A DNA stretch of 64,000 bases from positions 231,919 through 295,918 of the forward strand of contig JBBDRJ010000013.1 of assembly GCA_040905525.1 (NCBI GenBank). The letters are read 5' to 3'. Of this stretch, positions 6,229 through 64,000 are shown in pieces. The number at the start of each line of letters is the position of its first letter. Position 1 is the stretch's first letter. The position numbers and the translations under genes are program-made. This stretch comes from Actinomycetota bacterium (GTDB lineage: Bacteria > Actinomycetota > JAICYB01). Under the pieces are notes generated by a model. That model made no database searches. It was not told where the DNA came from and was given only the letters and a program-made list of their open reading frames with translations.

Positions 6229-6231
6229 GGT

Positions 6232-45818: not shown

Positions 45819-46012
45819 TCTAACAACTCAGTGTGCCTCTGGGCGGGCAGTGGACTAAGGCGCGATGCGACTGATGCTTTCACCGGTTGTTGATGATTTT
45901 CACCCTCATCGCCTTCGGACTTATGCCGTCTTGCGGCATCAAGGAATCATCCGTTGATGCGCCGTCATTAGCGCAACTCTGGGCGGGATACTCGGTGATG
46001 CTGACTTCGTCG

Positions 46013-46968: not shown

Positions 46969-47064
46969 TTCGATCCTTCCCCAACACGAACGAGTGTACG
47001 AGTCGGTGCCGACAGCCTTGAAGGGATTGCGTGAGATCTGCGGCGGTCGCGGATAATCCGAGCG

Positions 47065-48984: not shown

Positions 48985-49903
48985 TTGGTTGAAGGCGTAT
49001 GTAGCCGTCACGGACGGCGATTGGTATCGGTACTTGAGCCGGTTACCTGATCTCGACGAGGTCAACTTCTGGCAACCGAGTCCGAGCGGCGCGTTTCGAG
49101 CGGTCCAACCCGGAGAGTTGTTCCTGTTCAAGCTGCACCATCCCGAGAATTACATCGTTGGCGGTGGCTTCTTCGCCGACTACAGTGTGCTTCCGGCGAG
49201 TCTGACTTGGGAGTCGTTTGGCGAGAAGAACGGGGCAAGCAGCCTTGAAGATATGAAGTTACGGATCCGGAAGTATCGTCGATCCTCTGACCTAACAGAG
49301 GACCCTGATGTAGGTTGCATCGTCTTAGTACAGCCCTTCTTCTTCGATCGCAGAGATTGGATCAGTGCTCCGCTAAGTTTTGCGAAGAACATTGTTCGGG
49401 GGAAGACGTACGATTTCGAATCGCTCGAAGGACGCGCGCTGTGGCGAGACCTCGAGGCTCGACTCTTAGCCGTTCGTCAAGACGAATGGCAGGAGGTCGC
49501 GGCGCTCGGTGCTTTCGCTATGGTCCGTCGCAGGCTGGGCCAGGGCGCCTTCCGCGTCCTCGTAACGGACACCTATCGCCGCCAGTGTGCAATCTCCGGC
49601 GAGAAGGTGTTGCCGGTTCTTCAAGCCGCGCACATCCAACCGGTTGCCAGCGGTGGTTTGCACCGCATCGAGAACGGCCTTCTGCTTCGCTCCGATATCC
49701 ACACGCTCTTCGATCGTGGGTACGTGACGGTGACTCCGCGTTACGAAGTCAGGGTGAGCAATCGACTCAAGAAGGACTTTGCTGACGGCGAGTACTACGG
49801 CCAGTTCGATGGCCAAGGGATTTGGCTGCCAACCGCTGAGCAGGAACGGCCAGACGCGCAGCTTCTCGAGTGGCACTCCGACACAGTTTTCCGTGCGTCA
49901 TAG
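48974..49903 (+). CDS. HNH endonuclease (HNH_2-like) with ~190-aa N-terminal recognition-like domain
   Basis: C-terminal CAISGEKVLPVLQAAHIQPVASGGLHRIENGLLLRSDIHTLFDRGY (HNH). Overlaps the DUF2075 gene by 11 bp. Confidence 0.75.
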   Translation: MGADWLKAYVAVTDGDWYRYLSRLPDLDEVNFWQPSPSGAFRAVQPGELFLFKLHHPENYIVGGGFFADYSVLPASLTWESFGEKNGASSLEDMKLRIRKYRRSSDLTEDPDVGCIVLVQPFFFDRRDWISAPLSFAKNIVRGKTYDFESLEGRALWRDLEARLLAVRQDEWQEVAALGAFAMVRRRLGQGAFRVLVTDTYRRQCAISGEKVLPVLQAAHIQPVASGGLHRIENGLLLRSDIHTLFDRGYVTVTPRYEVRVSNRLKKDFADGEYYGQFDGQGIWLPTAEQERPDAQLLEWHSDTVFRAS

Positions 49904-49914
49904 GGTCGGGTAGG

Positions 49915-50625
49915 TCAGCCGTTCGCTTGGACCGCAAGCCGCTCGTCTAATTTGGTGCGAACGAGGTTTCGCTTGTCGTCGTCGAGTGCTTTTGGTAATT
50001 GAAGAAGCCAGTTCACGAGATCTGGACCTTGGACAATCGGAACGCCATTGTGAATCTGGTCACTGGTTGCGATCGCACTTGACCCTTGTCCCCAAACCAC
50101 AACGATCGGACGAACCTTGACGTCCACACCTGAGTGCTTGAGTAGCAGCCCGACGCTGCGTGCATTGGCGGCCGCTTGACCCGCATAGGCCGTCTGGATC
50201 CTCAGAACCTGGCCGTTCGTTCGCGGTCGATCGTTGATCCACTTGACCTCCAGAGCGAGAACGCCTCCCGGCCCCACAACGATTGCGTCTACGTCTCCAC
50301 GCGTGAGCAAGATGCCTTGGACGAGATTCCACCCGTGTTTGCGCAGCTTCTTGAGCTCGTCGTGGGTGGCCTCCTCGCCCCAAGCGCCGAATCTGTGATT
50401 GATGGAGCCCGATCCGAACATGATCGCGTTGAAGACGGCCCATGCAGCGCCGACGGTCAAGGCGCCAAGCGCGAACATTCGGACGGAAGCATTTGAGTTG
50501 AGCCAGAGCAAGCTTCCGGGCACTGCCAGTACCGCGAGGATCATGCTAAGCCTTGGGAGCTCACGCCTAACGAAGGCTCGTTCGCGCTTTTGCAGCTCGG
50601 CTCGTGGATACGTCTTGACTTTCAT
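49915..50625 (-). CDS. NERD domain nuclease-related membrane protein
   Basis: N-terminal TM. GDVDAIVVGPGGVLALEVKW is the NERD core. Confidence 0.7.
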   Translation of the reverse strand: MKVKTYPRAELQKRERAFVRRELPRLSMILAVLAVPGSLLWLNSNASVRMFALGALTVGAAWAVFNAIMFGSGSINHRFGAWGEEATHDELKKLRKHGWNLVQGILLTRGDVDAIVVGPGGVLALEVKWINDRPRTNGQVLRIQTAYAGQAAANARSVGLLLKHSGVDVKVRPIVVVWGQGSSAIATSDQIHNGVPIVQGPDLVNWLLQLPKALDDDKRNLVRTKLDERLAVQANG

Positions 50626-50760
50626 ACCTTCGTCATCGGCGAAGGTGCAGTGGAACTAAACGGTCCGGCTGATGCCCAGCTCCACCACTTGCCGAACAAA
50701 GGAACGAGCTCGATCTCCATGGAAAGCCGGGCGTCCGGCTCCGGAGACGTAAGCCAATTA

Positions 50761-51177
50761 CTACTTGAGAGCTAGCTCTCGGAAGCTAGTCCTCGTGGCG
50801 ATGAATATCCGAGGGCCGGTTAGCGCCGTAACCCGCTCGATGTCAGACCATCGAGCGACGGCGATGCCAAGCTCCCCCCAAGTAGTTGGATCGCGACGAA
50901 CGTCGAGTACCACCAGACGAAGAGCGTTCTCTTTAACTGCGTTTATCTCCACCGACTTCTTCGTGATCTGCCGGTCGCGCGAGATAACGATCCAATGTCG
51001 AGCGGCGACCTCTGGGATCCATTCCGGATCCTTGGCTTGCCGGCGTATCGGACACTTCGGACGGCCGCGGCTTGGATCTCCGGGATCTCCCGCGTATGTG
51101 GTGTCGTAACGCGCCTGAACTAGACTCTTACCGAGAGCTATTAGATCCGCGTCGATGTAATAGCGGATGTCTGCCAT
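50761..51177 (-). CDS. DUF5615-like PIN-fold putative toxin
   Basis: MADIRYYIDADL...WIVISRDRQI pattern, adjacent to the DUF433 protein. Confidence 0.5.
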   Translation of the reverse strand: MADIRYYIDADLIALGKSLVQARYDTTYAGDPGDPSRGRPKCPIRRQAKDPEWIPEVAARHWIVISRDRQITKKSVEINAVKENALRLVVLDVRRDPTTWGELGIAVARWSDIERVTALTGPRIFIATRTSFRELALK

Positions 51178-51186
51178 CGACCGACA

Positions 51187-51897
51187 TCACGCCGCAGTGA
51201 GAATGTGGGGCCAGTCGGTTGCTTCGTAGGCGAGAGCGGCGATCACATCGTCTTTCGTCAAACCGTATGCATCGGCCAACGCCTCAACGGGCTCTCCCGC
51301 ATCGGCCTTCTCCTTAAGGACGGAAGTCGAAACGCCCCCGACGGCTGGAACTCCAAAACGGATCTCGGGATCAATCACGACCGGTGAGGATTTGCCAAGA
51401 GGACGAATCCGAGCGGCGATCGCCGCGGGGCCTCGTCCGTCAAATTCCACGCGCGCCAAGAAGTGCTCAGCGATCGGCAGGAAGACTTCTTGGCCGGTCG
51501 TCGGCTCGAGAAGGATGGGCATAAGCCCGGGCTCGCCGCGGATGTGCTCACTTGCTTCGAGCAAGAGCCTCCGCCCCGGCCCAACCCAAGGCCGAGCTGT
51601 TGCAAGAGGGTAGGGGACCTTGAGCTCGGTTCTGAGCTTTGTCATGAACTCTCTTAGGCGCCACAGCTTCACCTGTAGCGCCTTTCGGTATCCGGCGAGA
51701 TAGCCGGCTTCGACCACCTCACCCCAGGTCAATACAGCCGAGCCGGTTGGTTCCGCCCGCAAGACCGGGGGATAGGTCTTCCCTCTGCGCTCGCCTCCTT
51801 CGAGCCACCAGCGCAGGGTGGACGGAGGCACGCGGAGAACGCCGGCGGCGACGCTCACCTCGTACAGCTCTCGATCCAGGGCGGATGGCGCGGCCAT
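51187..51897 (-). CDS. DUF433 domain protein with N-terminal HTH-like extension (putative antitoxin/regulator)
   Basis: The C-terminal VIDPEIRFGVPAVGGVSTSVLKEKADAGEPVEALADAYGLTKDDVIAALAYE matches DUF433. The N-terminus has the HTH-like segment LRVPPSTLRWW. Confidence 0.6.
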   Translation of the reverse strand: MAAPSALDRELYEVSVAAGVLRVPPSTLRWWLEGGERRGKTYPPVLRAEPTGSAVLTWGEVVEAGYLAGYRKALQVKLWRLREFMTKLRTELKVPYPLATARPWVGPGRRLLLEASEHIRGEPGLMPILLEPTTGQEVFLPIAEHFLARVEFDGRGPAAIAARIRPLGKSSPVVIDPEIRFGVPAVGGVSTSVLKEKADAGEPVEALADAYGLTKDDVIAALAYEATDWPHILTAA

Positions 51898-51935
51898 GTT
51901 TGGACTCTAGCGTGCCCTACCGGCAGACAGAACTA

Positions 51936-52763
51936 TCAGCTCTGTCTCCTCTTCTTGTTCGCGACGATGTTCGTCAGGAACCGGGCCGAAGAAGCGGCCG
52001 ACTCCACATCGCCGGCGCTGAGGTCGTCCATGTCGACGTCGGTCACAGCGACCCCCTTCGCGCACGCGTAGTCCATGGCCGACTCCTTGTGCCGCTGGTC
52101 GCGGAGCTCGGTTCGCTGCAAGTAGTAGTGGCTGATCATGTGGAAGACCTCGCCGTGGCCGTACGAGAAGAGAACCGCCACTGGCGCTTCGCCGTACTTG
52201 CCCTCGAGCTCCTTCGAGCGCACGAGCACCTTCACGCGCTCGGCGTTCAGGACGCGGATCGGGTAGGACGAACCCTCGAGCCACCACAGCGGCTCCTCGC
52301 CAGGGTCGATCACGCCCTGGAGGAACGGGTTGTCCGGCTCGGCGATCTCGATGCGCACGACGTCGTCCGAGGTCGGACGGTCATTATACGCGACCGTGTT
52401 CTGGAAGGCCGGCTCGATCACGTTGCGCAGAGCCCAGTCGGTGGTGAACAGGCTCCCGCCGTCGGCGACGAAGTCGCGGATCTGAACGATCGCGCCGGGG
52501 GAGACGTTGCCCGGGCAGTTGATGACGACTAGCTGCTCGAGACGCAGGACGATCGATTCGACCTGCGATGCCTGGACGCGCGTGTGCGGCATCTCGAGGG
52601 CGTCGAGGACGAGGTGGATGTGGTCGTAGGTGCCGTCCACGACGACGATGTCCGAGGCCTGGACGGTCCGGACGGCCTCGGCGTCCAAGGGGGCCTCGTT
52701 GGCCAGCCGTTCCCGGGCAATCTGGGCGCCGGCCCGGTAGGCGCGTGTTCGCTTCTCATCCAT
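51936..52763 (-). CDS. Hypothetical protein, possibly ThuA/class I glutamine amidotransferase-like fold
   Basis: IVVVDGTYDHIHL...LVVINCPGN...FVADGGSLFTTDWA pattern. Strong RBS gaggaggga before ATG 52763. Confidence 0.35.
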   Translation of the reverse strand: MDEKRTRAYRAGAQIARERLANEAPLDAEAVRTVQASDIVVVDGTYDHIHLVLDALEMPHTRVQASQVESIVLRLEQLVVINCPGNVSPGAIVQIRDFVADGGSLFTTDWALRNVIEPAFQNTVAYNDRPTSDDVVRIEIAEPDNPFLQGVIDPGEEPLWWLEGSSYPIRVLNAERVKVLVRSKELEGKYGEAPVAVLFSYGHGEVFHMISHYYLQRTELRDQRHKESAMDYACAKGVAVTDVDMDDLSAGDVESAASSARFLTNIVANKKRRQS

Positions 52764-52788
52764 GACTCCCTCCTCGCATCGTACGTAT

Positions 52789-52817
52789 GCTAATAGCATA
52801 ATACTAACGCTAATAGC
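52789..52817. promoter_or_regulatory. Two copies of GCTAATAGC (near-palindromic) 20 bp apart in the divergent promoter region
   Basis: AT-rich 100-bp intergenic region between the ThuA-like gene (-) and the XRE regulator (+). Repeats at 52789-52797 and 52809-52817. Confidence 0.3.
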
Positions 52818-52864
52818 GACAAAATGCGTATTGAGAGCGTAGGACGCGGGATATAGTCGAGGCC

Positions 52865-53362
52865 ATGGTTGAGCGAAGCCGCAGGTCAGAGCGTCCGCCG
52901 GGCCCCGACGCGCACGCCGCCGCGCTGGGTCACGCGATCAAGGTTCTCCGGACCGATCAGGGGATGGACCGGGCCGAGCTGGCCGAGGCGAGCGGGCTGT
53001 CGTACCCCTACCTGTCCGAGATCGAGAACGGGAAGAAGCGTCCGTCGTCGCGAGCTCTCGAGTCGCTGGCCGAGGCGCTGGGCCTGCGGGCGCACGAGCT
53101 CCTGGCGGCCGCGGACTCCCGTGTCGAGATGGTCGAGGGGGCCGAGGTGGATGCCGCCTACCTTATGGCCGAAGCTCCGGCCCCGGGCTCACCTCGCCGG
53201 CGGAGCTGGTTCAGGGACGAACCGATGAGGGTTGCTTCATTGCGGGCTTCGGCTCCGGGCCACACCGCGGATCTTGCGCGGGAGCTGGGAGAACTGCTGA
53301 CGAGGCTGACGGCCGAGGACGCCGATAGAGTGCTCGATCTCGCACGGCGACTGGCGCGCTGA
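52865..53362 (+). CDS. XRE-family helix-turn-helix transcriptional regulator
   Basis: LGHAIKVLRTDQGMDRAELAEASGLSYPYLSEIENGKKRPSSRALESLAEALGL is an HTH_XRE domain. Confidence 0.8.
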   Translation: MVERSRRSERPPGPDAHAAALGHAIKVLRTDQGMDRAELAEASGLSYPYLSEIENGKKRPSSRALESLAEALGLRAHELLAAADSRVEMVEGAEVDAAYLMAEAPAPGSPRRRSWFRDEPMRVASLRASAPGHTADLARELGELLTRLTAEDADRVLDLARRLAR

Positions 53363-53452
53363 AGCTTGCAGAGGCAGGAATGTCACACTTGATCATCACG
53401 CTCGATTGAGGGGGTTCTGACTCGAGCAGCGAATGCGGGAGACAATTGATCA

Positions 53453-54355
53453 ATGGGAACTAGGGTTCGAGCGGGACTTCGTGGGGCTTCGGCTCGCTTG
53501 GGAGTAGTAGAAGCGGCGGACGTCGCGCGGCTCATCCTGGATTTGGAGCGGGCAATGCAACAGTCCGCGCTCGCAGTCCTCGGGCGGCCGGACGCCCGAG
53601 GCCGACGTGGCCGAACGATCGAACAGTCCGCGAGGTGGCGCCTCCGGGCGATCTCCGAGGGCAGTGTTGTGGTGGAAATGGAGCTTCCGGAGAGGGTCGC
53701 AGAAGCGGACGCGCTCGAACTTGACGTACAGAACCTCGCGGAGGAAGCAATCCACAAAGCGTTGCGAGTCGTGACCAACGAGGACGCCACTCCTGAAGTG
53801 GCTGCCTCCCTTGCCGAATTGTCTAACGACCTCGATATCGGCGAGCGCTACGAAGGGCTCTGGATTGAGGTCGATGGTCCGAAGCCACGCCGTGCCGAGA
53901 TTGATTCGGGCGTGCGTGAACGCCTGCGGGAGTTAGCGACGACGCGTGCTGATCGCAATGCCAAGCGTGACAAGGTGACCGGAACTTTGTATGAGGCCGA
54001 CTTCGAGAAGAACACCGCTCATCTCCGTATTCCTGAGGGCAAGTCCGTAAGGGTGTCTTTTCGAGATGCGATGGCGGACGACATCCAGATGGCGCTTCGT
54101 CATCCAGCAGAACTCGAGGGCGAGATCGAATATGACCCTCGGACGTCGATGGCGGTCGCTGTCGAGCTTCGCTCAGTTCGGCGAGCCGATCAGCTCATGA
54201 TTGGGCTTGACACAGGTGAGTTCTGGCGCAACCCGACGATTGAAGAACTCAGGCAGGCGCACGGTGTGGCGCCGATTGAAGATCTCGACTCCTTGCGCAT
54301 TTCAGACGCCTCGGATGAGGAGCTGGAGGCCTTCCTCGAAGCGCTGAGCGGGTGA
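53453..54355 (+). CDS. Hypothetical 300-aa protein translationally coupled to the PIN protein
   Basis: Clean ORF with no recognisable family. GTGA overlap with the PIN gene. Confidence 0.5.
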   Translation: MGTRVRAGLRGASARLGVVEAADVARLILDLERAMQQSALAVLGRPDARGRRGRTIEQSARWRLRAISEGSVVVEMELPERVAEADALELDVQNLAEEAIHKALRVVTNEDATPEVAASLAELSNDLDIGERYEGLWIEVDGPKPRRAEIDSGVRERLRELATTRADRNAKRDKVTGTLYEADFEKNTAHLRIPEGKSVRVSFRDAMADDIQMALRHPAELEGEIEYDPRTSMAVAVELRSVRRADQLMIGLDTGEFWRNPTIEELRQAHGVAPIEDLDSLRISDASDEELEAFLEALSG

Positions 54356-54780
54356 ACGCATCTGAAGTTCGCCCAGGTCCCCTTCTATTGGACACCGACG
54401 TCGTCTCATTTCTCATCTCTGGTAAAGGTGAGCACGCACGGTTCGGAGAGCTCATCCGCGGGCATCTTCTGGTGGTGTCGTTCGCGACGGTGGCCGAATT
54501 GCTTGTCGGTGCGGCCATCGCGGGGTGGGGCGAGCGGAAGATCAGCCAACTCGAAGACAGTCTGAAAGCGTATGTGGTCGTTCCCGGAACTGAGGCAGTG
54601 GCGCGAGCGTGGGCGAGGCTCTCTGCCAGATTCAGGGATCAGGTGAGCGAGAACGACCTCTGGATCGCTGCCTCGTCGCTGGCTCAAGTCGATCCGCCGC
54701 CAATCGTGACGAACAATCTCCGGCACTTCCGACCGATCGCCGACGAGTTTGCCTTGGAGCTCGTCCACCCCGATTTGTAG
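54352..54780 (+). CDS. PIN domain (VapC-like) nuclease
   Basis: LLLDTDVVSFLI...ENDLWIAASSLA... acidic residues in PIN topology. 142 aa. Confidence 0.75.
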   Translation: MNASEVRPGPLLLDTDVVSFLISGKGEHARFGELIRGHLLVVSFATVAELLVGAAIAGWGERKISQLEDSLKAYVVVPGTEAVARAWARLSARFRDQVSENDLWIAASSLAQVDPPPIVTNNLRHFRPIADEFALELVHPDL

Positions 54781-54844
54781 GCCCCAGAAGTGGGGCCGTT
54801 GACGGTGTAGGTGGCCCGGTCATACGGTGCTCGCGGAGGGCTTA

Positions 54845-57800
54845 ATGAACGTCTTTGAGTTGCGGAAGCGTCTCATCAATGACTATTCGTCGTACGTCCG
54901 CAGCTTCATCAATATCCGCGATGAGCGAATCCGCCAGACGGTCGACCGCGACCTCGATGCGGGACTACTCTGGCCCGAGCCTCGTATCGGTCTGAACCCC
55001 TCGTTCGAAACGGGTGGCTGGATCGACGAACTCGTCGATTCCGGGCTCCTGCTCGAGGAGTGTCGCCGCATCTTCCGCATCCGCAAGACCGCCGAAGGTG
55101 CTGAAGGCGAACCAATGCGACTGCACCGCCATCAGGTCGATGCGATCAACGCCGCGAAGACGGGCAAGAACTACGTCCTCACGACGGGGACCGGTTCGGG
55201 CAAGAGCCTCGCGTACATCGTCCCGATCGTGGACCACGTCCTTCGCGCGGGTAGCGGTCGCGGCATAAAAGCGATCGTCGTGTATCCGATGAACGCACTG
55301 GCCAACAGCCAGGCCGGCGAGCTCACGAAGTTCCTCAGCTTCGGCTACCCGGATGGGAGGGGTCCGGTCACCTTCCGGAAGTACACGGGCCAGGAGTCCG
55401 ACGAGGAGCGCAACGAGATCATCGCGTCACCGCCAGACATCCTCTTGACGAACTACGTGATGCTCGAGCTGATCCTCACGCGCGTGAAGGAGAAGGGACT
55501 CATCCTCGCGGCTCGTGGCTTGCGGTTCCTTGTTCTGGATGAGCTCCACACGTACCGAGGCAGGCAGGGCGCGGATGTAGCACTGCTTGTCCGCCGGACG
55601 CGCGAAGCGTGCGAGGCACGAGAGCTCCAATGCGTCGGGACGTCCGCGACGCTCGCAACGCAGGGCTCCTTCCCGGAGCAGCGCGAAGAGATCGCGCGCG
55701 TCGCTTCGTTGCTCTTCGGTTCCGTAGTCCCCGACGAGAACGTGATCGGTGAGACCCTCAGGCGAGAGACGGGCGGCATCCCGAACGCAGAGCAACTGAC
55801 GACGCGGCTCGGCTCCCAAGCCGATCCGCCAGCTGACTACGACGGGTTCGTCGCCGATCCGCTGTCGTCGTGGATCGAGACGACGTTCGGCATCGAAGAG
55901 CGTGAAGGGCGCTTGGTCCGAACTCCTCCACGCGCGGTCGGCGGTCCCGGAGGCGCCGCCGAGCAGCTCAGCACGTTAACTGAAGTCGGCGCGGAGACGT
56001 GCCAGACCGCGATCGAGCGCCAGCTCCTCGCCGGGTACGGCGCGGAGAACCCCGACACCCGGTTCCCGGTGTTCGCCTTCCGGCTCCACCAGTTCATCAG
56101 CCGTGGCGACACCGCGTACGCGACGATCGAGCCAGAGGACGAGCGCTACATCACGACGCAACCACAACAGTTCGTTCCCGGCGATCGCAGCAAGCGCCTC
56201 TTCCCACTGGTCTTCTGTCGCGAGTGCGGTCAGGAGTACTACTCGGGACAACTCGCACAGCGCGAGGGCGCACCGGTTCTGGAGCAGCGCGATCCCGAGG
56301 AACGGATCGCGACCGAGGAGGAGGTCCCAGGCTACCTGTACTTCAACACCGCTTCGCCGTGGTCCGAGACCGACGAATCACGCGTCCCTGAGGACTGGAT
56401 CGAGGAGCGTCCGGACGGCAAGCGCATCCGTCTCGACCGACGCAAGTGGCTCCCCAAGCCTCTTGAGGTCGATCCGCTCGGGCACATCGACCGAGGCGGG
56501 CTACAAGGCCACTTCATCGAAGCGCCGTTCAGGTTCTGCTTGACGTGTGGTGTCACGTACGGTGGGAGGCTCAGACAGGACTTCACCAAGGTCGGGATGC
56601 TCGGCTCGGAAGGTCGAAGTACGGCGACGACGATCCTCAGCCAATCGGTCGTCCGGACGCTCCGGGAGATGGTCGAGGGCGCTCCCGAGAACGAGATCCA
56701 GAACGTCACACCGAAACTGCTTTCTTTCACCGACAACCGACAGGACGCGGCTCTTCAGGCCGGACACTTCAACGACTTTGTCGATGTGGGGCTTCTCCGG
56801 TCCGCGCTGTACAGAGCGGTACTCGCTGCCGGAACCCCGGGCCTCACACACGACGTGCTCACGCAGCGCGTCTTCGACGAGCTCGCACTTCCGTTCGAGA
56901 ACTATGCGGCCAATCCCGCGGCCGAGTTCAAAGCCCGGACCGACACCGAGCGCGCGCTGCGCGACGTCCTCGGCTACCGCTTGTACCTCGACCTTCGGCG
57001 GGGATGGCGCATCAGCTCGCCGAACCTGGAGCAGTGCGGGCTGCTCGAGGTCGCCTACGAATCGCTCGACGAGGTCTGCGAGGCGGAACGCGTCTGGAAC
57101 GACTGCCACGACGCGCTAGTGGGTGCGACCGCAGAGAGGCGGAAGCAAGTGTCGCGCACCCTTCTGGACCACATGCGCCGCGAGCTCGCGATCAAGGTCG
57201 ACTACCTGGGTGCCGACTTCCAGGAGCGCTTGCGTCAGACGTCGAGCCAACGGCTCATCTCCCCATGGGCGCTCGACGATCAAGAGGAGCCGGAGCACGC
57301 CGCGGTCATGCTGCCGCGCGCGCGGCGGCCCGACGACTACCGCGGCTGGAGCTACCTCTCGCCTCGCAGCGGGTTCGGCATCTACCTACGCCGCGAGCTC
57401 GGGTTCAAAGGTCTGGCGGACACCGAGGTCGTCACGAAGCAGCTCCTCGCCGCGCTGGAGCGTGGAGGGCTCGTCGAGAAGGTTCTCGAGACGAAGGACG
57501 ACGGTCCTGATGGCTACCAGATCCCGGCCTCAGCGTTCGTCTGGACGGCAGGCGACGGCACGCGAGCCTTCCATGACCCGATCCGTGTTCCGCATCCTTC
57601 GAAGGAAGGCGTTCGACCGAACCCGTTCTTCGTGGCCTTCTACAAGACGATCGCCGCGCAGGGTCGAGGCTTGCGAGCAGGTGAGCACACCGCCGCCGTG
57701 CCCTACGACAAGCGCATCGAGCGCGAGGAAGCGTTCAGGCAAGCACGCCTCCCCGTTCTGTTCTGCTCGCCGACGATGGAGCTCGGCGTCGACATCGCCG

Positions 57801-60010
57801 ACCTGAACATCGTCAACATGCGGAACGTCCCGCCGACTCCGGCCAACTACGCTCAGCGGTCAGGCCGCGCGGGACGGAGCGGCCAACCGGCGCTCGTGTT
57901 CACCTACTGCTCGGCCGGGAGTCCCCACGACCAGTACTTCTTCCGCCACCAGCAGGAGATGGTCTCCGGACAGGTAGCGCCGCCGCGGATCGACCTCACG
58001 AACGAGGACCTGATCCGTTCCCACGTTCATGCGATCTGGCTCACCGCAGCTGGGATGAGCCTCGGTGGATCGCTCAAGGACGTACTCGAGCTGTCGGGCG
58101 AGCCGCCGACGCTCCGCTTGCTCGACTACATCCAGGCAGATCTCTCGAAGCCGGAAGCCCGCGCGGCCGGCAGGGACAGATCCGCTCGCGTGCTCGCCGA
58201 CGTCGAGTCGCTGTTAGCGGGGTCAGACTGGTGGACCCCCGAGTGGTTGGACGACGTACTGAATGCGATGCCGCAATCGTTCGAGGCGGCGTGCGATCGG
58301 TGGCGCAGCCTATACAGCGCGGCCCGGAATCAAGCCGAGCTCCAGCACAAGATCATCATCGACCACTCTCGACAACCCGCCGACAAGCGCCAGGCGGAAC
58401 GGCTTCGCCGAGAGGCGGTCGCGCAGATGGATCTCCTCACCGCTGACACGGGCGACGCGCTCTTCCAATCCGACTTCTACAGCTACCGGTACTTCGCGAG
58501 CGAGGGCTTCCTGCCCGGCTACAGCTTCCCGCGGCTCCCGCTATCAGCGTTCGTGCCCGGCCGGCGTGGCACCCGTGGCACAGACGAGTTCCTCAACCGC
58601 CCTCGTTTCCTCGCCATCAGTGAGTTCGGCCCGCGCAACATCATCTATTACGAAGGTTCGAGGTTCGTAATCAACAAGGTGATCCTCCCGGTCGGAACGG
58701 AGGTCGAGGGGAGTGATCAACCCGTCCTCACGCGTTCGGTGAAGCAGTGCGACTCCTGCGGATACCTCCATCCTTTGGAGGGAGACGTCGGCCCGGATCT
58801 CTGTGAGGGATGCGGCGAGCCCCTCAACGCCGCGATGGACCACCTCTTCCGTCTGCAGAATGTCGCCACGAAACGCCGAGATCGCATCAACAGCGACGAG
58901 GAAGAGCGCACACGCCACGGTTACGACCTGCGTACGGGCCTCCGCTTCGCCCGCAAAGACGGGAGGACGCTGAAGCGGACGGCCTCGGTGCAGGCCGGCG
59001 ACACGGAGATCGGTCGCCTCGAGTACGGCCACACAGCAACGCTCTGGCGGATCAACCTGGGCTGGCGTCGCCGGGCCAACAAGCACGAGCACGGGTTCGT
59101 GCTCGACATGGAGCGCGGTTTCTGGGCGAGACGACAGGACGACCCTGTCAACGACGATCCCGACGACCCAATGAGCGCGAGGACGATGCGCGTGATCCCG
59201 TTCGTCGAGGATCGGAAGAACTGTCTCACCCTGGAGCTCGGCGATCGCGCCTCGGCCGAGCTTCTTTCATCGCTCCAGGCCGCGTTGAAGAACGCGATCA
59301 CGGTGACCTATCAACTGGAGGACCACGAGTTGGCCGCCGAGCCTTTGCCGTCGCCGCAGGATCGGCGTCGACTGCTCATCTACGAGGCATCGGAGGGCGG
59401 GGCCGGCGTTCTCCGCAGACTCGTCGAAGACCCGGGCGCACTCGGCGTCGTCGCGAAGCGAGCTCTGGAGCTCTGCCACTACGACCCAGAAACCTTCGAA
59501 GACCGAGGACGCGCGCCGGGCGCAACGGAGGCTTGCGAAGCGGCTTGCTACGACTGCCTGATGAGCTATATGAACCAACCGGAGCACCGGCTCCTCGACC
59601 GCAAGCTCGTGAAGGACCTGCTCGTGAATCTCGCGGGCGCACGCATCATGACGTCGCCTGTACAGATCGGTCGTGGCGAGCACCTCGACCGACTCAAGCG
59701 CGTCGCAGCATCGGAGCTTGAGCGGCGCTGGCTCGACTTCATCGACGGAGCCGGGCACACCCTTCCCGATCGGGCGGGCACGCTCCTCGAAGCGGCCGGG
59801 ACGAGGCCCGACTTCCTGTACGACAGCGACTTCGCGGCGATCTACATCGACGGCCCGCCGCACGACTTCCCCGATCGGCAGGTACGCGACCGTGAGAAAC
59901 ACGCACGACTCGAGGACCTCGGCTACACCGTGATCCGTTTCGCCGCGGATGCGCAGTGGGCCGAGCTCATCGGCCGCTATCCGTGGGTGTTTGGCAAGAG
60001 GAACGGATGA
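54845..60010 (+). CDS. Giant DExH-box helicase fused to DUF1998-like module and C-terminal DUF559/Vsr-like nuclease domain (DrmA+DrmB-like or DruE-like)
   Basis: Helicase motifs I TGTGSGKSLAYIVPIV, II FLVLDELHTYRG, VI ANYAQRSGRAGRSG. DUF1998-like region YSYRYFASEGFLPGYSFPRLP plus a zinc ribbon CDSCGYLHP...CEGCGEP. C-terminal AIYIDGPPHDF...HARLEDLGYTVIRF. RBS ggaggg before ATG 54845 (alternative GTG at 54827). Confidence 0.8.
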   Translation: MNVFELRKRLINDYSSYVRSFINIRDERIRQTVDRDLDAGLLWPEPRIGLNPSFETGGWIDELVDSGLLLEECRRIFRIRKTAEGAEGEPMRLHRHQVDAINAAKTGKNYVLTTGTGSGKSLAYIVPIVDHVLRAGSGRGIKAIVVYPMNALANSQAGELTKFLSFGYPDGRGPVTFRKYTGQESDEERNEIIASPPDILLTNYVMLELILTRVKEKGLILAARGLRFLVLDELHTYRGRQGADVALLVRRTREACEARELQCVGTSATLATQGSFPEQREEIARVASLLFGSVVPDENVIGETLRRETGGIPNAEQLTTRLGSQADPPADYDGFVADPLSSWIETTFGIEEREGRLVRTPPRAVGGPGGAAEQLSTLTEVGAETCQTAIERQLLAGYGAENPDTRFPVFAFRLHQFISRGDTAYATIEPEDERYITTQPQQFVPGDRSKRLFPLVFCRECGQEYYSGQLAQREGAPVLEQRDPEERIATEEEVPGYLYFNTASPWSETDESRVPEDWIEERPDGKRIRLDRRKWLPKPLEVDPLGHIDRGGLQGHFIEAPFRFCLTCGVTYGGRLRQDFTKVGMLGSEGRSTATTILSQSVVRTLREMVEGAPENEIQNVTPKLLSFTDNRQDAALQAGHFNDFVDVGLLRSALYRAVLAAGTPGLTHDVLTQRVFDELALPFENYAANPAAEFKARTDTERALRDVLGYRLYLDLRRGWRISSPNLEQCGLLEVAYESLDEVCEAERVWNDCHDALVGATAERRKQVSRTLLDHMRRELAIKVDYLGADFQERLRQTSSQRLISPWALDDQEEPEHAAVMLPRARRPDDYRGWSYLSPRSGFGIYLRRELGFKGLADTEVVTKQLLAALERGGLVEKVLETKDDGPDGYQIPASAFVWTAGDGTRAFHDPIRVPHPSKEGVRPNPFFVAFYKTIAAQGRGLRAGEHTAAVPYDKRIEREEAFRQARLPVLFCSPTMELGVDIADLNIVNMRNVPPTPANYAQRSGRAGRSGQPALVFTYCSAGSPHDQYFFRHQQEMVSGQVAPPRIDLTNEDLIRSHVHAIWLTAAGMSLGGSLKDVLELSGEPPTLRLLDYIQADLSKPEARAAGRDRSARVLADVESLLAGSDWWTPEWLDDVLNAMPQSFEAACDRWRSLYSAARNQAELQHKIIIDHSRQPADKRQAERLRREAVAQMDLLTADTGDALFQSDFYSYRYFASEGFLPGYSFPRLPLSAFVPGRRGTRGTDEFLNRPRFLAISEFGPRNIIYYEGSRFVINKVILPVGTEVEGSDQPVLTRSVKQCDSCGYLHPLEGDVGPDLCEGCGEPLNAAMDHLFRLQNVATKRRDRINSDEEERTRHGYDLRTGLRFARKDGRTLKRTASVQAGDTEIGRLEYGHTATLWRINLGWRRRANKHEHGFVLDMERGFWARRQDDPVNDDPDDPMSARTMRVIPFVEDRKNCLTLELGDRASAELLSSLQAALKNAITVTYQLEDHELAAEPLPSPQDRRRLLIYEASEGGAGVLRRLVEDPGALGVVAKRALELCHYDPETFEDRGRAPGATEACEAACYDCLMSYMNQPEHRLLDRKLVKDLLVNLAGARIMTSPVQIGRGEHLDRLKRVAASELERRWLDFIDGAGHTLPDRAGTLLEAAGTRPDFLYDSDFAAIYIDGPPHDFPDRQVRDREKHARLEDLGYTVIRFAADAQWAELIGRYPWVFGKRNG

Positions 60011-62811
60011 GCTTCGCTGTCGGAACGCTCGTCAGAGCCCGCGGACGCGAATGGGTCGTTCTCCCTGAGTCGGAGGGGGATCTACTCGTCTTGCGACCGC
60101 TCGGCGGGACGGACGAAGAGGTCGCCGGTGTTCTGACATCGATCGAGGACGTCGAGCCGGCGACATTCGCGCTGCCCGATCCGGAGCGCGTCGGCGACTT
60201 CGTCTCGGCCCGTCTGCTGCGTGATGCGCTCCGGCTCGGTTTCCGGTCGTCAGCAGGCCCGTTCCGCTCGTTCGGACGGATTGCGGTCGACCCTCGTCCG
60301 TATCAGCTCGTTCCGTTACTCATGGCTCTGCGGATGGACCCCGTTCGGCTTCTCATTGCCGACGACGTCGGCATCGGGAAGACCGTGGAAGCCGGGTTGA
60401 TCGCTCGTGAGCTGCTGGACCGGGGCCTCGCGAAGCGGATGGCGGTGCTGTGCCCGCCGCACCTCGCGGAGCAGTGGCAGAACGAGCTCGCGTCGAAGTT
60501 CCATCTGGACGCCGAACTCGTGCTCGCATCGACCGCATCACGGCTCGAGCGAGGCCTTCCGCGCGACCTCACGATCTTCGACGTGAATCCGTGGGTCATC
60601 GTGTCGACCGACTTCATCAAGGCGGAGCGACGACGGCACGAGTTCCAGCGGACGTGCCCGGAGCTCGTGATCGTCGACGAGGCGCACACGTGCGCGTTCG
60701 ATCCAGCGACGCGGAGCGCCCGTCACCAGCGCCACGAGCTCATCAAGGGACTCACGTCGGACGAGAGCAGACACCTCATCCTCGTCACGGCGACACCGCA
60801 CAGTGGCAACGAGGGAGCGTTCCGTTCGCTCCTCGAGCTGCTGGACCCGAAGCTCGGCGCGCTGCCCGAAGATCTCAGCGGGCCGGAGAACCAGCGACAC
60901 CGCCGCGAGCTCGCGCGTTACCTCGTCCAGCGGCAGCGCGGCGACATCAAGCACTTCCTCGGTGACACCCCGTTCCCAGATCGAGAAGAAGGGGAAGCTG
61001 ACTACCGCTTGAGTCCCGAGTACCGGAAGCTCTTCGACCGGGTCGTCGACTACGCCCGCGAGACCGTGCGGGACCCGGCCGGCGGCGCCCATCGCCAGCG
61101 TGTCCGTTGGTGGTCGGCGCTCGCTCTGCTGCGGTCGATGGCATCGAGCCCAGCGGCGGCGGCCGCGACACTCCGCGAACGATCGAAGACCGCGGACACC
61201 GACAGCGTCGACCGGGCGGACGAGATCGGTCGGCGCGAGATCCTCGATGAGGGCGACACCGAAGAGGACGAGGTCTCCGATGTCACGCCCGGCGGGGACT
61301 TCAGTGAGAACGGTGACGCCAAAGGTCCTCGCAAGCGGCTGCTCGGGTTCGCTCGCGAGGCGGACAAGCTGTGCGGCGACAAGGACGCCAAGCTCATCAA
61401 GGCCGTCGCGCTCATCAAGGGTCTCTTGAAAGACGGCTATAGCCCGATCGTGTTCTGCAGGTACATCCCGACCGCGGACTACCTCGCGGCCGAACTGCGT
61501 AAGCGGCTCGCTAAGACGGTCACGGTCGAGGCGGTGACGGGTCGGCTGCCCGCGCCGGAGCGCGAAGCGCGGGTCGATGCGCTCGGAGAGAGCGAACCCC
61601 GTGTGCTCGTCGCCACGGACTGCCTCTCGGAAGGGATCAACCTCCAGGACCATTTCGACGCCGTGCTGCACTACGACCTCTCGTGGAACCCAACCCGTCA
61701 CGAGCAACGCGCGGGCCGCGTCGACCGGTTCGGCCAGAGTCGCGACTTCGTCCGTGTGCTGACGTACTACGGGACGGACAACAGGATCGACGGCATCGTG
61801 CTGGACGTCCTACTGCGCAAGCACGAAGCCATTCGGAAGCGCTTGGGCGTGTCGGTGCCGGTGCCGGCCAATTCGCAGAGCGTCGTCGAGGCGATCCTCG
61901 AGGGGTTGCTCCTCCGGAGGGAGGAACAGGCCGGCCTGGAGCAGCTCGTCCTGTCCGAGGAGATGTTCCAGCCGGAACGTCACGGCCTGCACGACGACTG
62001 GGAGCAGGCGGCCGAACGCGAGAGGCGCTCGCGCTCGATCTTCGCTCAGGAGTCAATCAAGGTCGAAGAGGTCGCCGCCGAGTTGGACGAGGCACGAGCC
62101 GCCGTGGGCGGTGGCGCAGACCTGGCCGACTTCGTCCGTTCGGCACTGAAGGTCCATCGTGCCGTCGTGTCGGGAACCGATCCGGTGAGGATCGATCTGA
62201 AGGACGTCCCGCGCGCGCTCAAGGATCTCCTCGGCGAGTCGGGGAGTCTCACCGCGACATTCGAGCCCGCGGGCAACGCAGACATGTACCTCCAGCGGAC
62301 CCATCCGTTCGTCGAAGGCCTCGCCTCCTACGTCATCGACTCCGCACTCGATCCGGTCGGTGATGGCGTCGCTCGGAGATGCGGCGCCATCCGCACGAAA
62401 GCCGTTACGTCACGCACCACGCTGTTGCTGTGCCGCCTCCGCATGCACCTCATCACGGTGCGAGAAGGCACGGAACACGCGCTGCTCGCCGAAGATGCGG
62501 CGTTGATGGCCTTCGAGGGATCACCGGAGTCACCCAATTGGCTCGATCCGAACGCCGCCGAAGCTCTCCTCGACACGAAGCCGGACGCCAACGTCCCGGC
62601 CGGTCAGGCCACGGAGTTCGTCCGCAAAGTGATCGATGCCTACGACCGATGGGCAACGGCACTCGACGCGCACGCGAAGTCCCGAGCCGAGGAGCTCCTC
62701 GACGCGCACAAGCGGGTTCGCGCGGCGACGCGGTCAACCGGCGTTCGGTACACCGTTGAACCCCAGCTCCCACCGGACATCCTTGGCATCTACGTCTTCT
62801 TGCCGGCCTGA
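60007..62811 (+). CDS. SNF2-family helicase (DrmD-like)
   Basis: LIADDVGIGKTVEAG (Walker A), ELVIVDEAHTCA (DEAH box), LILVTATPHSGNEG, C-terminal helicase motifs LVATDCLSEGINLQDHFDAVLHYDLSWNPTRHEQRAGRVDRFGQ. ATGA overlap with the upstream gene. Confidence 0.85.
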   Translation: MSFAVGTLVRARGREWVVLPESEGDLLVLRPLGGTDEEVAGVLTSIEDVEPATFALPDPERVGDFVSARLLRDALRLGFRSSAGPFRSFGRIAVDPRPYQLVPLLMALRMDPVRLLIADDVGIGKTVEAGLIARELLDRGLAKRMAVLCPPHLAEQWQNELASKFHLDAELVLASTASRLERGLPRDLTIFDVNPWVIVSTDFIKAERRRHEFQRTCPELVIVDEAHTCAFDPATRSARHQRHELIKGLTSDESRHLILVTATPHSGNEGAFRSLLELLDPKLGALPEDLSGPENQRHRRELARYLVQRQRGDIKHFLGDTPFPDREEGEADYRLSPEYRKLFDRVVDYARETVRDPAGGAHRQRVRWWSALALLRSMASSPAAAAATLRERSKTADTDSVDRADEIGRREILDEGDTEEDEVSDVTPGGDFSENGDAKGPRKRLLGFAREADKLCGDKDAKLIKAVALIKGLLKDGYSPIVFCRYIPTADYLAAELRKRLAKTVTVEAVTGRLPAPEREARVDALGESEPRVLVATDCLSEGINLQDHFDAVLHYDLSWNPTRHEQRAGRVDRFGQSRDFVRVLTYYGTDNRIDGIVLDVLLRKHEAIRKRLGVSVPVPANSQSVVEAILEGLLLRREEQAGLEQLVLSEEMFQPERHGLHDDWEQAAERERRSRSIFAQESIKVEEVAAELDEARAAVGGGADLADFVRSALKVHRAVVSGTDPVRIDLKDVPRALKDLLGESGSLTATFEPAGNADMYLQRTHPFVEGLASYVIDSALDPVGDGVARRCGAIRTKAVTSRTTLLLCRLRMHLITVREGTEHALLAEDAALMAFEGSPESPNWLDPNAAEALLDTKPDANVPAGQATEFVRKVIDAYDRWATALDAHAKSRAEELLDAHKRVRAATRSTGVRYTVEPQLPPDILGIYVFLPA

Positions 62812-62815
62812 CCTG

Positions 62816-64000
62816 ATGGCACGTAAGCCGCTCTTTGCGACGATCCGCACCGAAGGCGGGTTGCTGCCATCGGACCTCCTCGCGCGAGTAGCGAGCGATG
62901 ACCGCGACCTGCCGGGACTGGGTCCTGAGGACTACCACCTGGCGAAGGGCGAGCGGATCGGCGAGGCCATCACGAGGTCATGGAACCGGCTGATCGGCGC
63001 CTGGGCATCCTTGCGGACCCACCTTGGCGAGACGAAGTCGGACGACGCCGCGACCGGACTTACCCGAGACCGTTTCCTGCTCCCGTTGTTCGCCGAGCTC
63101 GGCTTCGGGCGCCTGGCCCCATCGAAGGGGATCGCGGTCGGCGACGCGAGCTTCCCCGTCTCTCACGCGTGGGGCGCGGTCCCGATCCATCTCGTCGGGG
63201 CTCGCGTCGACCTCGACCGTCGCACCGCCGGCGTCGCGGGCGCCGCGCGGAGCTCGCCGCACTCGCTCGTGCAGGACCTACTCAACCGGTCCGACGAGTA
63301 CCTGTGGGGCATCGTCGCGAACGGTGAGCGGCTGCGGTTGCTGCGGGACAACTCGTCGATGACTAGGCAAGCGTTCGTCGAGTTCGATCTGGTCGCCATG
63401 TTCGAGGGCGAGGTCTACGCCGACTTCGTCGTGCTGTGGCTGACTTGCCACCAGTCACGTTTCGAGGCCGAGCGTCCGGAAGCGTGCCTTCTTGAGCGAT
63501 GGACGCAAGCTGCTGTTGAGCAGGGAACGCGCGCCCTCGAACAGCTCAGGGACGGCGTCGAGCGAGCCATCCAAGATCTGGGCCAGGGGCTCCTCTCGAA
63601 TGCCTCGAATGGCGCGCTGCGAGATCGCCTGCGCTCTGGCGAACTGTCGACGCAGGACTACTACCGGCAACTCCTGCGTGTGGTGTACCGGTTGCTGTTC
63701 CTCTTCGCCGCCGAGGACCGCAACCTCCTTCTCACGAGGGAGCACGACGCTGACGCCTCGCGGGAGCGATACGTGCGCTACTATTCAACAACCCGGTTGC
63801 GTTCTCTCGCGCGAACACGACGAGGTTCGACGCATCCGGACCTGTGGCGAGCGCTGCGGGTCGTGATGGACGCCCTGGGTAGCGAAGGTCGACCCGAGCT
63901 CGGCCTTCCCGTGCTAGGCAGCTTCCTTTGGTCGAAGGAAGCCGTCGGCGCTCTCGAAGGCTGTGAGATCGCGAACAAGGATCTTCTCGCTGCCGTTGCG
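62816..64000 (+). CDS. N-terminal part of a large DNA methyltransferase/type IIG-like protein (PglX/DrmMI family candidate), 3' partial
   Basis: Frame 2 is open from ATG 62816 to the window end (395 codons). The N-terminal helical region with LRLLRDNSSMTRQAFVEFDL is reminiscent of the N-domain of PglX/MmeI-like enzymes. The catalytic motifs would lie beyond the window. Confidence 0.45.
   Translation, partial: MARKPLFATIRTEGGLLPSDLLARVASDDRDLPGLGPEDYHLAKGERIGEAITRSWNRLIGAWASLRTHLGETKSDDAATGLTRDRFLLPLFAELGFGRLAPSKGIAVGDASFPVSHAWGAVPIHLVGARVDLDRRTAGVAGAARSSPHSLVQDLLNRSDEYLWGIVANGERLRLLRDNSSMTRQAFVEFDLVAMFEGEVYADFVVLWLTCHQSRFEAERPEACLLERWTQAAVEQGTRALEQLRDGVERAIQDLGQGLLSNASNGALRDRLRSGELSTQDYYRQLLRVVYRLLFLFAAEDRNLLLTREHDADASRERYVRYYSTTRLRSLARTRRGSTHPDLWRALRVVMDALGSEGRPELGLPVLGSFLWSKEAVGALEGCEIANKDLLAAVA

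Follow-up and report, generated by a model that had tools for sequence, protein, structure and literature searches.

A probable ARMADA Type I anti-phage defense operon in an Actinomycetota metagenome-assembled genome

Identity and layout of the locus

At positions 54845-64000 (plus strand) of the window, which is the whole 64-kb stretch of DNA that was analyzed, three same-strand, closely packed genes encode a helicase/nuclease, an SNF2 helicase, and a DNA methyltransferase, and this locus is assigned, with a probability of about 0.88, to an ARMADA Type I anti-phage defense operon in an Actinomycetota metagenome-assembled genome. ARMADA Type I has been described by Bell et al. (bioRxiv 10.1101/2025.09.15.676423). 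The cassette is a further example of this known, widespread system, named in 2025, and not a new DISARM variant. The first-pass annotation had regarded the locus as an uncharacterized variant of a helicase/methylase-based anti-phage system; the anti-phage role is supported, in the form of ARMADA Type I, and the description as uncharacterized falls away, the architecture having already been published (bioRxiv 10.1101/2025.09.15.676423).

The gene order is YprA-like helicase (ArmC), BrxHII/RapA-like SNF2 helicase (ArmA), and PglX-like methyltransferase (ArmB), and the catalytic motifs of all three products are intact, including GTGSGKS and DELH in ArmC, GIGKT and DEAH in ArmA, and DPACGSG and NPPW in ArmB. 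The start codon of armA overlaps the stop codon of armC as ATGA, and armB begins 4 nt past the armA stop, which, together with the Pfam matches given below, bears out the earlier description of three co-directional, coupled genes with these domains. The three genes are as follows.

54845..60010, plus strand: armC-like gene, YprA-family DExH helicase-nuclease, 1721 aa (Pfam, PADLOC, identity to listed Type I helicases)
60007..62811, plus strand: armA-like gene, BrxHII/RapA-like SNF2 helicase, 934 aa (Pfam, motifs, PADLOC)
62816..64000 (window end), plus strand: armB-like gene, PglX-like N6-adenine methyltransferase, first 395 codons (PADLOC, Pfam, motifs)

In gene order as in domain content, the locus agrees with the published definition of Type I. 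The three genes, their order, and the C-terminal Vsr domain on ArmC are shared with the described system, with no architectural difference, although the copy studied here is interrupted inside armB by the contig end. ArmC is 58-62% identical, at 100% coverage, to MCL4821584.1, HZS33450.1, and MBW2032151.1, which are named "ARMADA Type I helicase" among the entries listed from Table S1 of Bell et al. (bioRxiv 10.1101/2025.09.15.676423); the helicase of this locus, MEX0874890.1, is absent from those listed entries. With identity serving as a proxy for a phylogeny, ArmC would fall among the Type I members of the YprA tree. Type I is most abundant in two phyla, Actinomycetota being one of them, and an active Vsr domain has been predicted for this type (Bell et al., bioRxiv 10.1101/2025.09.15.676423). 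As for ArmD, the RelE-GajB-like helicase that marks Type II, the region downstream of armB lies off the contig, and 44 relatives show no conserved next gene.

The helicase-nuclease ArmC

The armC-like product is the predicted effector of the system. Its ATG is preceded at about 6 nt by GGAGG, and homologues share the MNVFELR start; an alternative GTG start at 54827 would give a product of 1727 aa. Matches to Pfam comprise DEAD (93 bits), Helicase_C (45.8 bits), and MZB/DUF1998 (PF09369, 40.2 bits against a cut-off of 24.2), the last of which confirms the DUF1998-like module recognized at first. Among 120 homologues, 572 of the 1721 positions are at least 95% identical, and the invariance of the residues listed below was judged on 25 homologues.

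55127..55657, plus strand: RecA1/DEAD domain (Pfam DEAD), with Walker A GTGSGKS at aa 115-121 and motif II DELH at aa 232-235; G115-S121, D232, E233, and H235 show no variation
56216..56548, plus strand: zinc-binding module preceding RecA2, with invariant CxxC pairs C458/C461 and C565/C568
57665..57883, plus strand: RecA2/Helicase_C core (Pfam Helicase_C), with motif VI QRSGRAGR at aa 1004-1011, its residues invariant
58508..58813, plus strand: OB/connector region, with GFLPGYSFP at aa 1221-1229 and a Cys4 insert (C1302, C1305, C1320, C1323), all invariant
59273..59560, plus strand: MZB/DUF1998 zinc-binding domain (PF09369), aa ~1477-1572, with C1544, C1564, C1568, and C1571 invariant
59630..60007, plus strand: C-terminal Vsr-type (DUF559-like) PD-(D/E)xK nuclease domain, aa 1596-1721

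The zinc module preceding RecA2 appears to match the ZBM of ARMADA/Druantia helicases, which has been described as a beta-barrel carrying two or more CxxC motifs. The OB/connector block aligns with the EGLLPNYAFP block of E. coli Type II ArmC. The FLPGYSFP motif and the CxxC...CxxC pairs, which had been assigned to the DUF1998-like module, are indeed present and conserved, but they lie in this OB/connector region, upstream of the segment matched by the Pfam MZB model. BrxA-like and MarR-like domains may be expected between RecA1 and RecA2, given that ArmC and the Type I helicases listed by Bell et al. are 60% identical over their full length. The C-terminus adopts a Vsr-like fold with D1656, D1669, and H1673 invariant, which agrees with the Type I definition of a nuclease with predicted activity. 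This C-terminal nuclease had been missed in the first-pass annotation.

The SNF2 helicase ArmA

Pfam recognizes SNF2-rel_dom (38.8 bits) and Helicase_C (66.4 bits) in the second gene product, whose motifs are located at aa 122 (GIGKT), aa 224 (DEAH), and aa 567 (QRAGRVDR). Among solved structures, RapA comes closest (84 bits), and identity to the E. coli ArmA reaches 27% over 637 aa. In PADLOC, a model labeled "DpdE" (PDLC02853) gives 855 bits, DrmD 294 bits, and BrxHII 196 bits.

The methyltransferase ArmB and the contig end

The armB reading frame runs beyond the window, with 1047 codons to the contig end, while its homologues are mostly ~1240-1610 aa in length (excluding three shorter ORFs that are probably cut). 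N6_Mtase, Eco57I, and MmeI_Mtase are matched in Pfam, and beyond the window, on the same contig, the motifs DPACGSGHF (aa 497-505) and NPPW (aa 771-774) are found, establishing the methyltransferase that had been proposed from the N-terminal part. The PADLOC DrmMI model matches the window fragment and scores 231 bits on the 1047-aa product, covering part of the 1347-position model; the window fragment has no match in NCBIfam. Identity to E. coli ArmB is 26-27%, and the PADLOC model REase_MTase_IIG gives up to 114 bits. At the N-terminus, a further fold has been located by structure comparison.

63113..63400, plus strand: restriction-endonuclease-like fold of the ArmB N-terminus, aa ~100-195

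This fold resembles DrdV, BpuSI, MmeI, and HsdR, and residues H117, H125, D134, E189, and D191 of the domain are invariant; searches by sequence against the PDB returned no matches to ArmB, with either a single sequence or an N-terminal profile.

The contig stops inside armB, at residue 1047, in a run of 16-17 G. The NCBI contig of the metagenome-assembled genome and two Logan assemblies all stop at this same poly-G run of at least 16-17 G, and therefore related loci were used for the remainder of the methyltransferase and for the check on a PLD gene. Two features of ArmB invite speculation, and it is rather unlikely that either holds: that the poly-G tract is a length-variable on/off switch, or that the N-terminal domain is a working, non-canonical nuclease. 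If the G run is a real length-variable homopolymer, slipped-strand mispairing could toggle ArmB and with it the whole system. In the Pgl system of Streptomyces coelicolor, an 8-G tract in pglX gives such slipped-strand switching. Were the N-terminal domain a working nuclease, Type I would be a two-nuclease machine. The idea that G/C homopolymers are general to ARMADA methyltransferase genes was rejected, as runs of at least 7 occur there at 2.4 per 100 kb, compared with 3.2 and 2.1 in the helicase genes, and where armB genes are split in other loci, the break points do not lie at homopolymers.

Distribution and genomic neighborhood

Homologues of the cassette give more than 599 matches in species-representative genomes, extend across many phyla at 44-70% identity with a patchy spread, and are present on 111 plasmid records. 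The order of the first, second, and third genes is kept in all 80 of the 80 fetched loci with enough downstream DNA, and because it recurs in every one of them, the three-gene pattern is not due to chance. A conserved fourth gene was sought among 44 relatives and rejected, since a different defense gene stands 3' of armB in each group of loci; the genes in this position include McrB plus McrC, KAP NTPase, UvrD-like helicase (1 of 10 downstream products scanned), Schlafen-type helicase, NERD-helicase, and DUF4062.

The upstream setting is a defense island containing PDC-S41 helicase, HNH, NERD, and PIN genes. Three upstream genes were considered as members of the system and rejected, namely an HTH gene (52865-53362), a 300-aa gene (53453-54355), and a PIN gene (54352-54780). 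The latter two have no homologue in 84 related loci, and the HTH gene has a single partial match among them, located about 4 kb upstream and on the opposite strand in one locus (L012). Concerning the island borders, no tRNA was found in the window and no integrase among the ORFs at 38.8-47.1 kb, and a scan of 52.7-55.1 kb for promoters and terminators found none.

Comparison with other defense systems

The sister system, for which phage tests exist, is ARMADA Type II of E. coli NCTC 12900 / EDL933 O-island 172 (armABCD; EDL933 sequences were taken from NZ_CP008957.1), which guards E. coli against many phages in a non-abortive manner and needs all its genes, the helicase Walker motifs, and the NPPW motif for defense (PMC13463889). 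Its proteins are homologous to those of the present locus (ArmA 27%, ArmB 26-27%, ArmC 23-36% in blocks that include the Vsr domain). The Type II gene order, however, is armA-armB-armC-armD, with an additional essential RelE-GajB-like ArmD, and its ArmC is longer (2113 aa), carrying extra EEP-like and second Vsr-like domains.

The first-pass annotation had placed the locus in DISARM class 1, as a variant with DrmA and DrmB joined in one polypeptide; this reading, with a loss of DrmC added, is now considered very improbable. The resemblance is real in part: as in DISARM class 1 (Serratia sp. SCBI; DrmD, DrmMI, DrmA, DrmB, DrmC), an SNF2 protein and an N6-adenine methyltransferase partner a DUF1998-associated helicase in a restriction-modification-like logic, and the PADLOC scores given above show the SNF2 gene to be related to DrmD and the methyltransferase gene to DrmMI. 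NCBIfam DISARM_DrmD even spans nearly the whole of ArmA, but at 325.5 bits against a cut-off of 610, and ArmA is related, not equivalent, to DrmD. It is the model scores that refute DISARM membership, with DISARM_DrmAS reaching 18.1 bits (cut-off 950) and DISARM_DrmAL 14.5 bits (cut-off 999), and with PADLOC placing DruE (305 bits) far above DrmA (59.5 bits). The DISARM helicase consists of two proteins, DrmA and DrmB, has an N-terminal EVE-like domain and a trigger loop, and is accompanied by a separate PLD protein as the nuclease, whereas the present helicase is a single polypeptide that houses the MZB domain, with no separate DrmB, and bears its own Vsr nuclease, which takes the place of the PLD nuclease DrmC. 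The absence of a PLD gene, already remarked upon, holds as far downstream as the contig reaches: none was matched among the genes scanned or seen beside relatives, and the HxKxxxxD (HKD) motif is missing from all six frames of the 64-kb window. According to Bell et al. (2025, bioRxiv 10.1101/2025.09.15.676423), proteins of the YprA family are usually fused, DISARM being the branch that is consistently split, so that the framing as a "DrmA + DrmB fusion" is unfit for what is the ordinary state of the family; their YprA tree also groups ARMADA with Druantia and not with DISARM/Dpd.

A second reading, in which a Druantia-type DruE helicase is combined with an SNF2 and a methyltransferase gene, is hardly probable, although a DruE-like helicase, suggested from the outset as the alternative, does agree with the best PADLOC matches of ArmC, which are the DruE models (DruE3 at 305 bits, then DruE1 and DruE2). 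Outside ARMADA, DruE is the helicase most closely related to ArmC, and both possess the zinc module insert and a fused OB-connector-MZB canopy; two helicases of ~2000 aa, followed by MrfA (YprA), lead the PDB sequence matches of ArmC; and Druantia and ARMADA helicases share one clade (bioRxiv 10.1101/2025.09.15.676423). The DruE matches are nevertheless partial, covering three stretches of a 2055-position profile, with 23-25% identity to E. coli DruE. Druantia partners are DruH, DruA-D, or DruM/F/G, without an SNF2 plus PglX-like pair, and no relatives of DruA-D, DruH, DruM, DruF, or DruG were detected in the neighborhood. The C-terminal domain of Druantia helicases is either an inactivated Vsr (Types I/II) or a PLD (Type III, of which DruH-DruE is the best studied), whereas the Vsr motif is intact here (Bell et al., bioRxiv 10.1101/2025.09.15.676423).

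Equally slight is the probability of a type IIG/BREX-like or Dpd-like restriction-modification module, in which the methyltransferase itself would both recognize and cleave DNA, with the helicases as accessories. Such a module would be consistent with the N-terminal fold of ArmB, its REase_MTase_IIG score, and the "DpdE" score of ArmA. PglX of BREX/Pgl resembles the methyltransferase layout and BrxHII the SNF2 helicase, but the locus is without PglZ, BrxC, BrxA, BrxB, and BrxL and has a nuclease-carrying helicase, which BREX lacks. With respect to Dpd, NCBIfam DpdE scores 185 against a cut-off of 500 and DpdJ 74 against 800, and the ten upstream genes match no PADLOC model of another Dpd protein and no Pfam family that would point to 7-deazaguanine synthesis.

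A housekeeping MrfA/Lhr-type DNA-repair helicase operon, an outcome the earlier annotation had allowed for, is effectively refuted by context and model scores and has a negligible probability: despite MrfA among the PDB matches and partial matches to NCBIfam Lhr-type models, these matches are confined to the RecA core and lie far below the cut-offs, and the helicase gene is invariably accompanied by genes for an SNF2 helicase and a large methyltransferase, is patchily spread across phyla and plasmids at about 45-60% identity, and sits among defense genes.

Proposed mechanism of ARMADA Type I

In the literature searched, no phage-challenge experiment, methylation motif, or biochemistry was found for ARMADA Type I, and because phage tests exist only for Type II, we infer every functional step of the following working model from the domains and motifs observed. 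ArmB, which has a type-IIG-like layout and belongs to the PglX-like gamma-class N6-adenine methyltransferases, would mark a specific motif in host DNA and probably acts also as the subunit through which the restricting complex reads DNA. ArmA, as a RapA/BrxHII-like SNF2 ATPase, may travel on or remodel duplex DNA. ArmC, a YprA/MrfA-like DNA helicase of 3'-to-5' polarity whose OB-connector-MZB canopy is rich in zinc sites, would load on unmarked invader DNA or on its single-stranded intermediates and cut by means of its C-terminal Vsr-type nuclease; DruE, the closest studied helicase, works on DNA in the 3'-to-5' direction and binds single-stranded DNA. The expected outcome would be the direct, non-abortive clearance of phage DNA.

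Significance

The label of the locus changes from "novel DISARM variant" to a precise published name. Classifiers predating late 2025 will scatter these genes under "DruE", "DpdE/DrmD", and "DrmMI" labels. ARMADA Type I is very common, yet the phage experiments in the literature searched concern Type II, which is ~25% identical and also requires armD as a fourth gene. A minimal system of three genes, in which helicase and nuclease are fused in a single effector, would offer a cleaner model than Type II with its four genes, and Type I could be used to address how these components (PglX-like methyltransferase, SNF2 motor, and YprA helicase) jointly discriminate self from invader.

Organization of the Three-Gene Locus

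Three co-directional genes occupy the right end of the window, with the following coordinates.

54845-60010, + strand: gene 1, armC-like (YprA-family helicase-nuclease), 1721 aa counted from the ATG
60007-62811, + strand: gene 2, armA-like (SNF2 helicase), 934 aa, its ATG overlapping the gene 1 stop as ATGA
from 62816, + strand: gene 3, armB-like (PglX-like methyltransferase), starting four bases past the gene 2 stop and running off the window end

The ATG of gene 1 is preceded by GGAGG, and homologues share the same first residues (MNVFELR), while with a start at the GTG further upstream (54827) the product would be 1727 aa long. The window sequence is also contained in contig JBBDKJ010000005.1 of an Actinomycetota MAG (GCA_040879475.1), which ends 1.95 kb beyond the window, within gene 3. 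The first-pass annotation had described this arrangement correctly, as the gene layout, the Pfam matches, and the methyltransferase motifs past the window end were all confirmed; it had also seen no PLD gene, and the HxKxxxxD motif is indeed absent from every frame of the window.

Components of the Locus

Gene 1 contains the Pfam domains DEAD, Helicase_C, and MZB/DUF1998, the last of which had been anticipated and, at 40.2 bits, exceeds its cut-off of 24.2. Thousands of full-length relatives came up in a database search, several of them carrying the annotation "YprA (DUF1998 family)/very-short-patch-repair endonuclease"; the best 120 share 57-70% identity with gene 1, are about 1725 aa long, and come from many phyla, and across them 572 of the 1721 positions show 95% identity or above. 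The key residues are listed below.

Residues of gene 1 invariant across 25 homologues
aa 115-121: Walker A, GTGSGKS
aa 232-235: DELH
C458/C461 and C565/C568: two CxxC pairs between the RecA lobes
aa 1004-1011: QRSGRAGR
GFLPGYSFP block, with C1302, C1305, C1320, C1323 forming a Cys4 insert
C1544, C1564, C1568, C1571: MZB cysteines
P1655-D1656...D1669-G1670..H1673...D1682...R1698: C-terminal pattern

The Vsr-type motif and fold of gene 1 are intact, as are the ATPase motifs of both helicases. Longer forms also occur among the homologues (the set P0021, P0079, P0083, P0090, P0096, P0104, P0110, and P0102). Some measure about 1835 aa, and in P0021, the one inspected, the C-terminus continues for about 110 aa past the Vsr domain; one homologue of 2078 aa contains Pfam PF08852.

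Gene 2 combines the Pfam domains SNF2-rel_dom and Helicase_C with the motifs GIGKT, DEAH, and QRAGRVDR, K125 being its Walker A lysine, and its closest solved structure is RapA. The PADLOC v2 model PDLC02853, labeled DpdE, matches it end to end with 855 bits, followed by DrmD (294) and BrxHII (196), whereas the NCBIfam DpdE model, at 185 bits, stays below its cut-off of 500. PDLC02853 probably represents ARMADA SNF2 helicases, and older annotation runs are therefore likely to mislabel such helicases.

Probable Assignment to ARMADA Type I

The defense branch of YprA helicases has been divided into named systems, among which ARMADA is defined by a YprA-like helicase, a BrxHII/RapA-like helicase, and a PglX-like methyltransferase, usually encoded in this order in Type I (Bell et al., bioRxiv 10.1101/2025.09.15.676423). 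According to the same study, ARMADA helicases feature a BrxA-like insert, a CxxC-rich beta-barrel, a MarR-like domain, and a C-terminal Vsr nuclease predicted to be active, while members of the DISARM branch consistently encode helicase and DUF1998 apart and have a PLD protein of its own as nuclease (bioRxiv 10.1101/2025.09.15.676423).

Every testable feature of the Type I definition is present in the stretch of the locus covered by the contig, up to its end inside gene 3; this follows from the gene order, the domains, and the identity to listed Type I helicases as against the low identity to Type II and DruE. Three close homologues, 58-62% identical to gene 1 over the full length, are entered as "ARMADA Type I helicase" in Table S1 of Bell et al. 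By comparison, identities to the Type II locus of E. coli EDL933, which has been studied experimentally, are 23-36% between ArmC and gene 1 (two blocks that extend as far as the Vsr domain), 27% between ArmA and gene 2, and 26-27% between ArmB and gene 3. The alternative of a Druantia-like helicase, which the first-pass annotation had considered, draws on the DruE models being the top PADLOC matches of gene 1 (305 bits), a match of partial coverage, and E. coli DruE is 23-25% identical to gene 1. The preferred filing of that annotation, a DISARM class-1 variant with fused DrmA/DrmB, is contradicted by the model scores, as DrmA reaches 59 bits in PADLOC, far below DruE, and 18 and 14.5 bits in NCBIfam against cut-offs of 950 and 999, and NCBIfam DrmD gives gene 2 325 bits against 610.

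On these sequence comparisons, the locus is very probably (roughly 0.88) an anti-phage locus of ARMADA Type I and would thus belong to a kind already published in 2025, rather than being an uncharacterized variant as had been proposed.

The Methyltransferase and the Poly-G Contig End

The gene 3 product can be followed for 1047 aa up to the contig end and matches Pfam N6_Mtase, Eco57I, and MmeI_Mtase. The methyltransferase motifs expected on the extended contig were found, the SAM-binding DPACGSGHF at aa 497-505 and NPPW at aa 771-774, both intact. The N-terminal region contains a further domain.

63113-63400, + strand: restriction-endonuclease-like N-terminal domain of gene 3, aa ~100-195

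This domain has invariant H117, H125, D134, E189, and D191 without a canonical D...(D/E)xK; it may bind DNA, form an unusual active site, or be a nuclease that has lost its activity.

Three assemblies, that of the NCBI contig and two independent ones from Logan made from different sequencing runs, break off at one and the same stretch of 16-17 G, located inside gene 3.

L001 (NCBI contig extended past the window), 15934-15950: terminal G run
L002 (Logan assembly), 15934-15949: terminal G run
L003 (Logan assembly), 10491-10506: terminal G run

The run falls at about residue 1041, in a variable linker immediately before the conserved LPLYEAKM block of the homologues. Poly-G tails are a common artefact of two-colour Illumina chemistry, and the run could have this origin; such homopolymer runs are not enriched in homologous methyltransferase genes, and the 64-kb window contains no homopolymer of 8 or more. 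A real phase-variation switch is possible by analogy, because the G tract of pglX drives Pgl phase variation in Streptomyces coelicolor (PMC4365076).

Conservation of the Cassette in Related Loci

Four long contigs with close homologues carry the same helicase, SNF2, and methyltransferase cassette between unrelated flanks, and no PLD gene was found on them. More than 599 related loci were counted with one genome per species, and among the 80 fetched, the order of genes 1, 2, and 3 is kept in every locus with enough downstream DNA, the methyltransferase mostly measuring about 1240-1610 aa. Homologues also turn up on 111 plasmid records, roughly half of which are mobilizable or conjugative. Candidate complete Type I cassettes are those of the Nocardioides sp. 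JS614 plasmid NC_008697.1, of Mycolicibacter acidiphilus, and of a Streptomyces locus. L074, a related locus, has two methyltransferase genes of one family, the second lying upstream of the helicase (4237-8298). The megaplasmid MP1 of the model organism Deinococcus radiodurans R1 (L089; NC_000958.1, 157173-169643) bears this cassette too, its helicase sharing 46% identity with gene 1. There the annotation divides the methyltransferase into two ORFs, an ISDra3 transposase comes after it, and another IS element lies just upstream; this copy looks decayed.

The gene 3' of the methyltransferase is not conserved among related loci. In seven actinobacterial loci (L056, L059, L065, L067, L076, L077, and L082) it is an McrB-like gene (Mrr_N and AAA_5), starting between a 7-nt overlap and about 45 nt past the methyltransferase in the five with a visible junction and followed by McrC in four of the seven. 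A Type IV restriction pair (McrB/McrC) is thus tightly joined to ARMADA Type I in these relatives. Other locus groups have a KAP NTPase, a UvrD-like helicase, a Schlafen-type helicase, a NERD-helicase, or DUF4062 in this position.

Defense-Gene Surroundings

Genes 1-3 sit in a defense-island setting, which includes the following upstream genes.

47065-49903, + strand: Schlafen-group-3/DUF2075-type helicase (PADLOC PDC-S41, 463 bits) overlapping an HNH_2 endonuclease gene (70 bits)
49915-51897, - strand: NERD nuclease-domain gene, then a PIN_10 gene paired with a DUF433 gene
52865-54780, + strand: XRE-type HTH, then a 300-aa protein, then PIN (VapC-like)

Homologues of the HNH gene lie directly upstream of the ARMADA helicase in two related loci (L054 and L057), and a homologue of the Schlafen-type helicase follows the methyltransferase in a third (L019); both genes appear to be recurrent neighbors of ARMADA Type I. 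The genes at 49915-51897 are further small defense or toxin-antitoxin-like genes. The 300-aa protein, with weak PDC-M32A matches, overlaps the PIN gene by 4 nt; together they resemble a toxin-antitoxin-type module, and 64 nt separate the end of the PIN gene from the beginning of the helicase. The HTH, 300-aa, and PIN genes show no association with other ARMADA copies. The G+C content of the window, about 66%, dips to 0.59-0.65 over 44001-56000 versus 0.65-0.69 elsewhere, spanning the small defense genes and the helicase start, and this drop suggests acquired DNA. A search of the whole window for tRNAs and of the ORFs at 38.8-47.1 kb for an integrase found neither.

Proposed Mechanism and Significance

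ARMADA Type II protects E. coli from many phages without cell killing or arrest, and protection depends on every gene of the system as well as on the Walker and NPPW motifs (PMC13463889). ARMADA II is already among the systems that current DefenseFinder models recognize (PMC13463889). The DNA helicase DruE works 3'-to-5' and binds single-stranded DNA, and DrmAB binds single-stranded overhangs. The three-gene linkage is strict among related loci. In the mechanism proposed here, ArmB would mark self DNA and help to read DNA, ArmA would travel along duplex DNA, and ArmC would load onto invader DNA that lacks the mark, or onto single-stranded intermediates of that DNA, and cut via its Vsr domain. 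In the literature searched, no experimental test of any Type I system was found, yet Type I is abundant, and it is this that gives the locus its worth.
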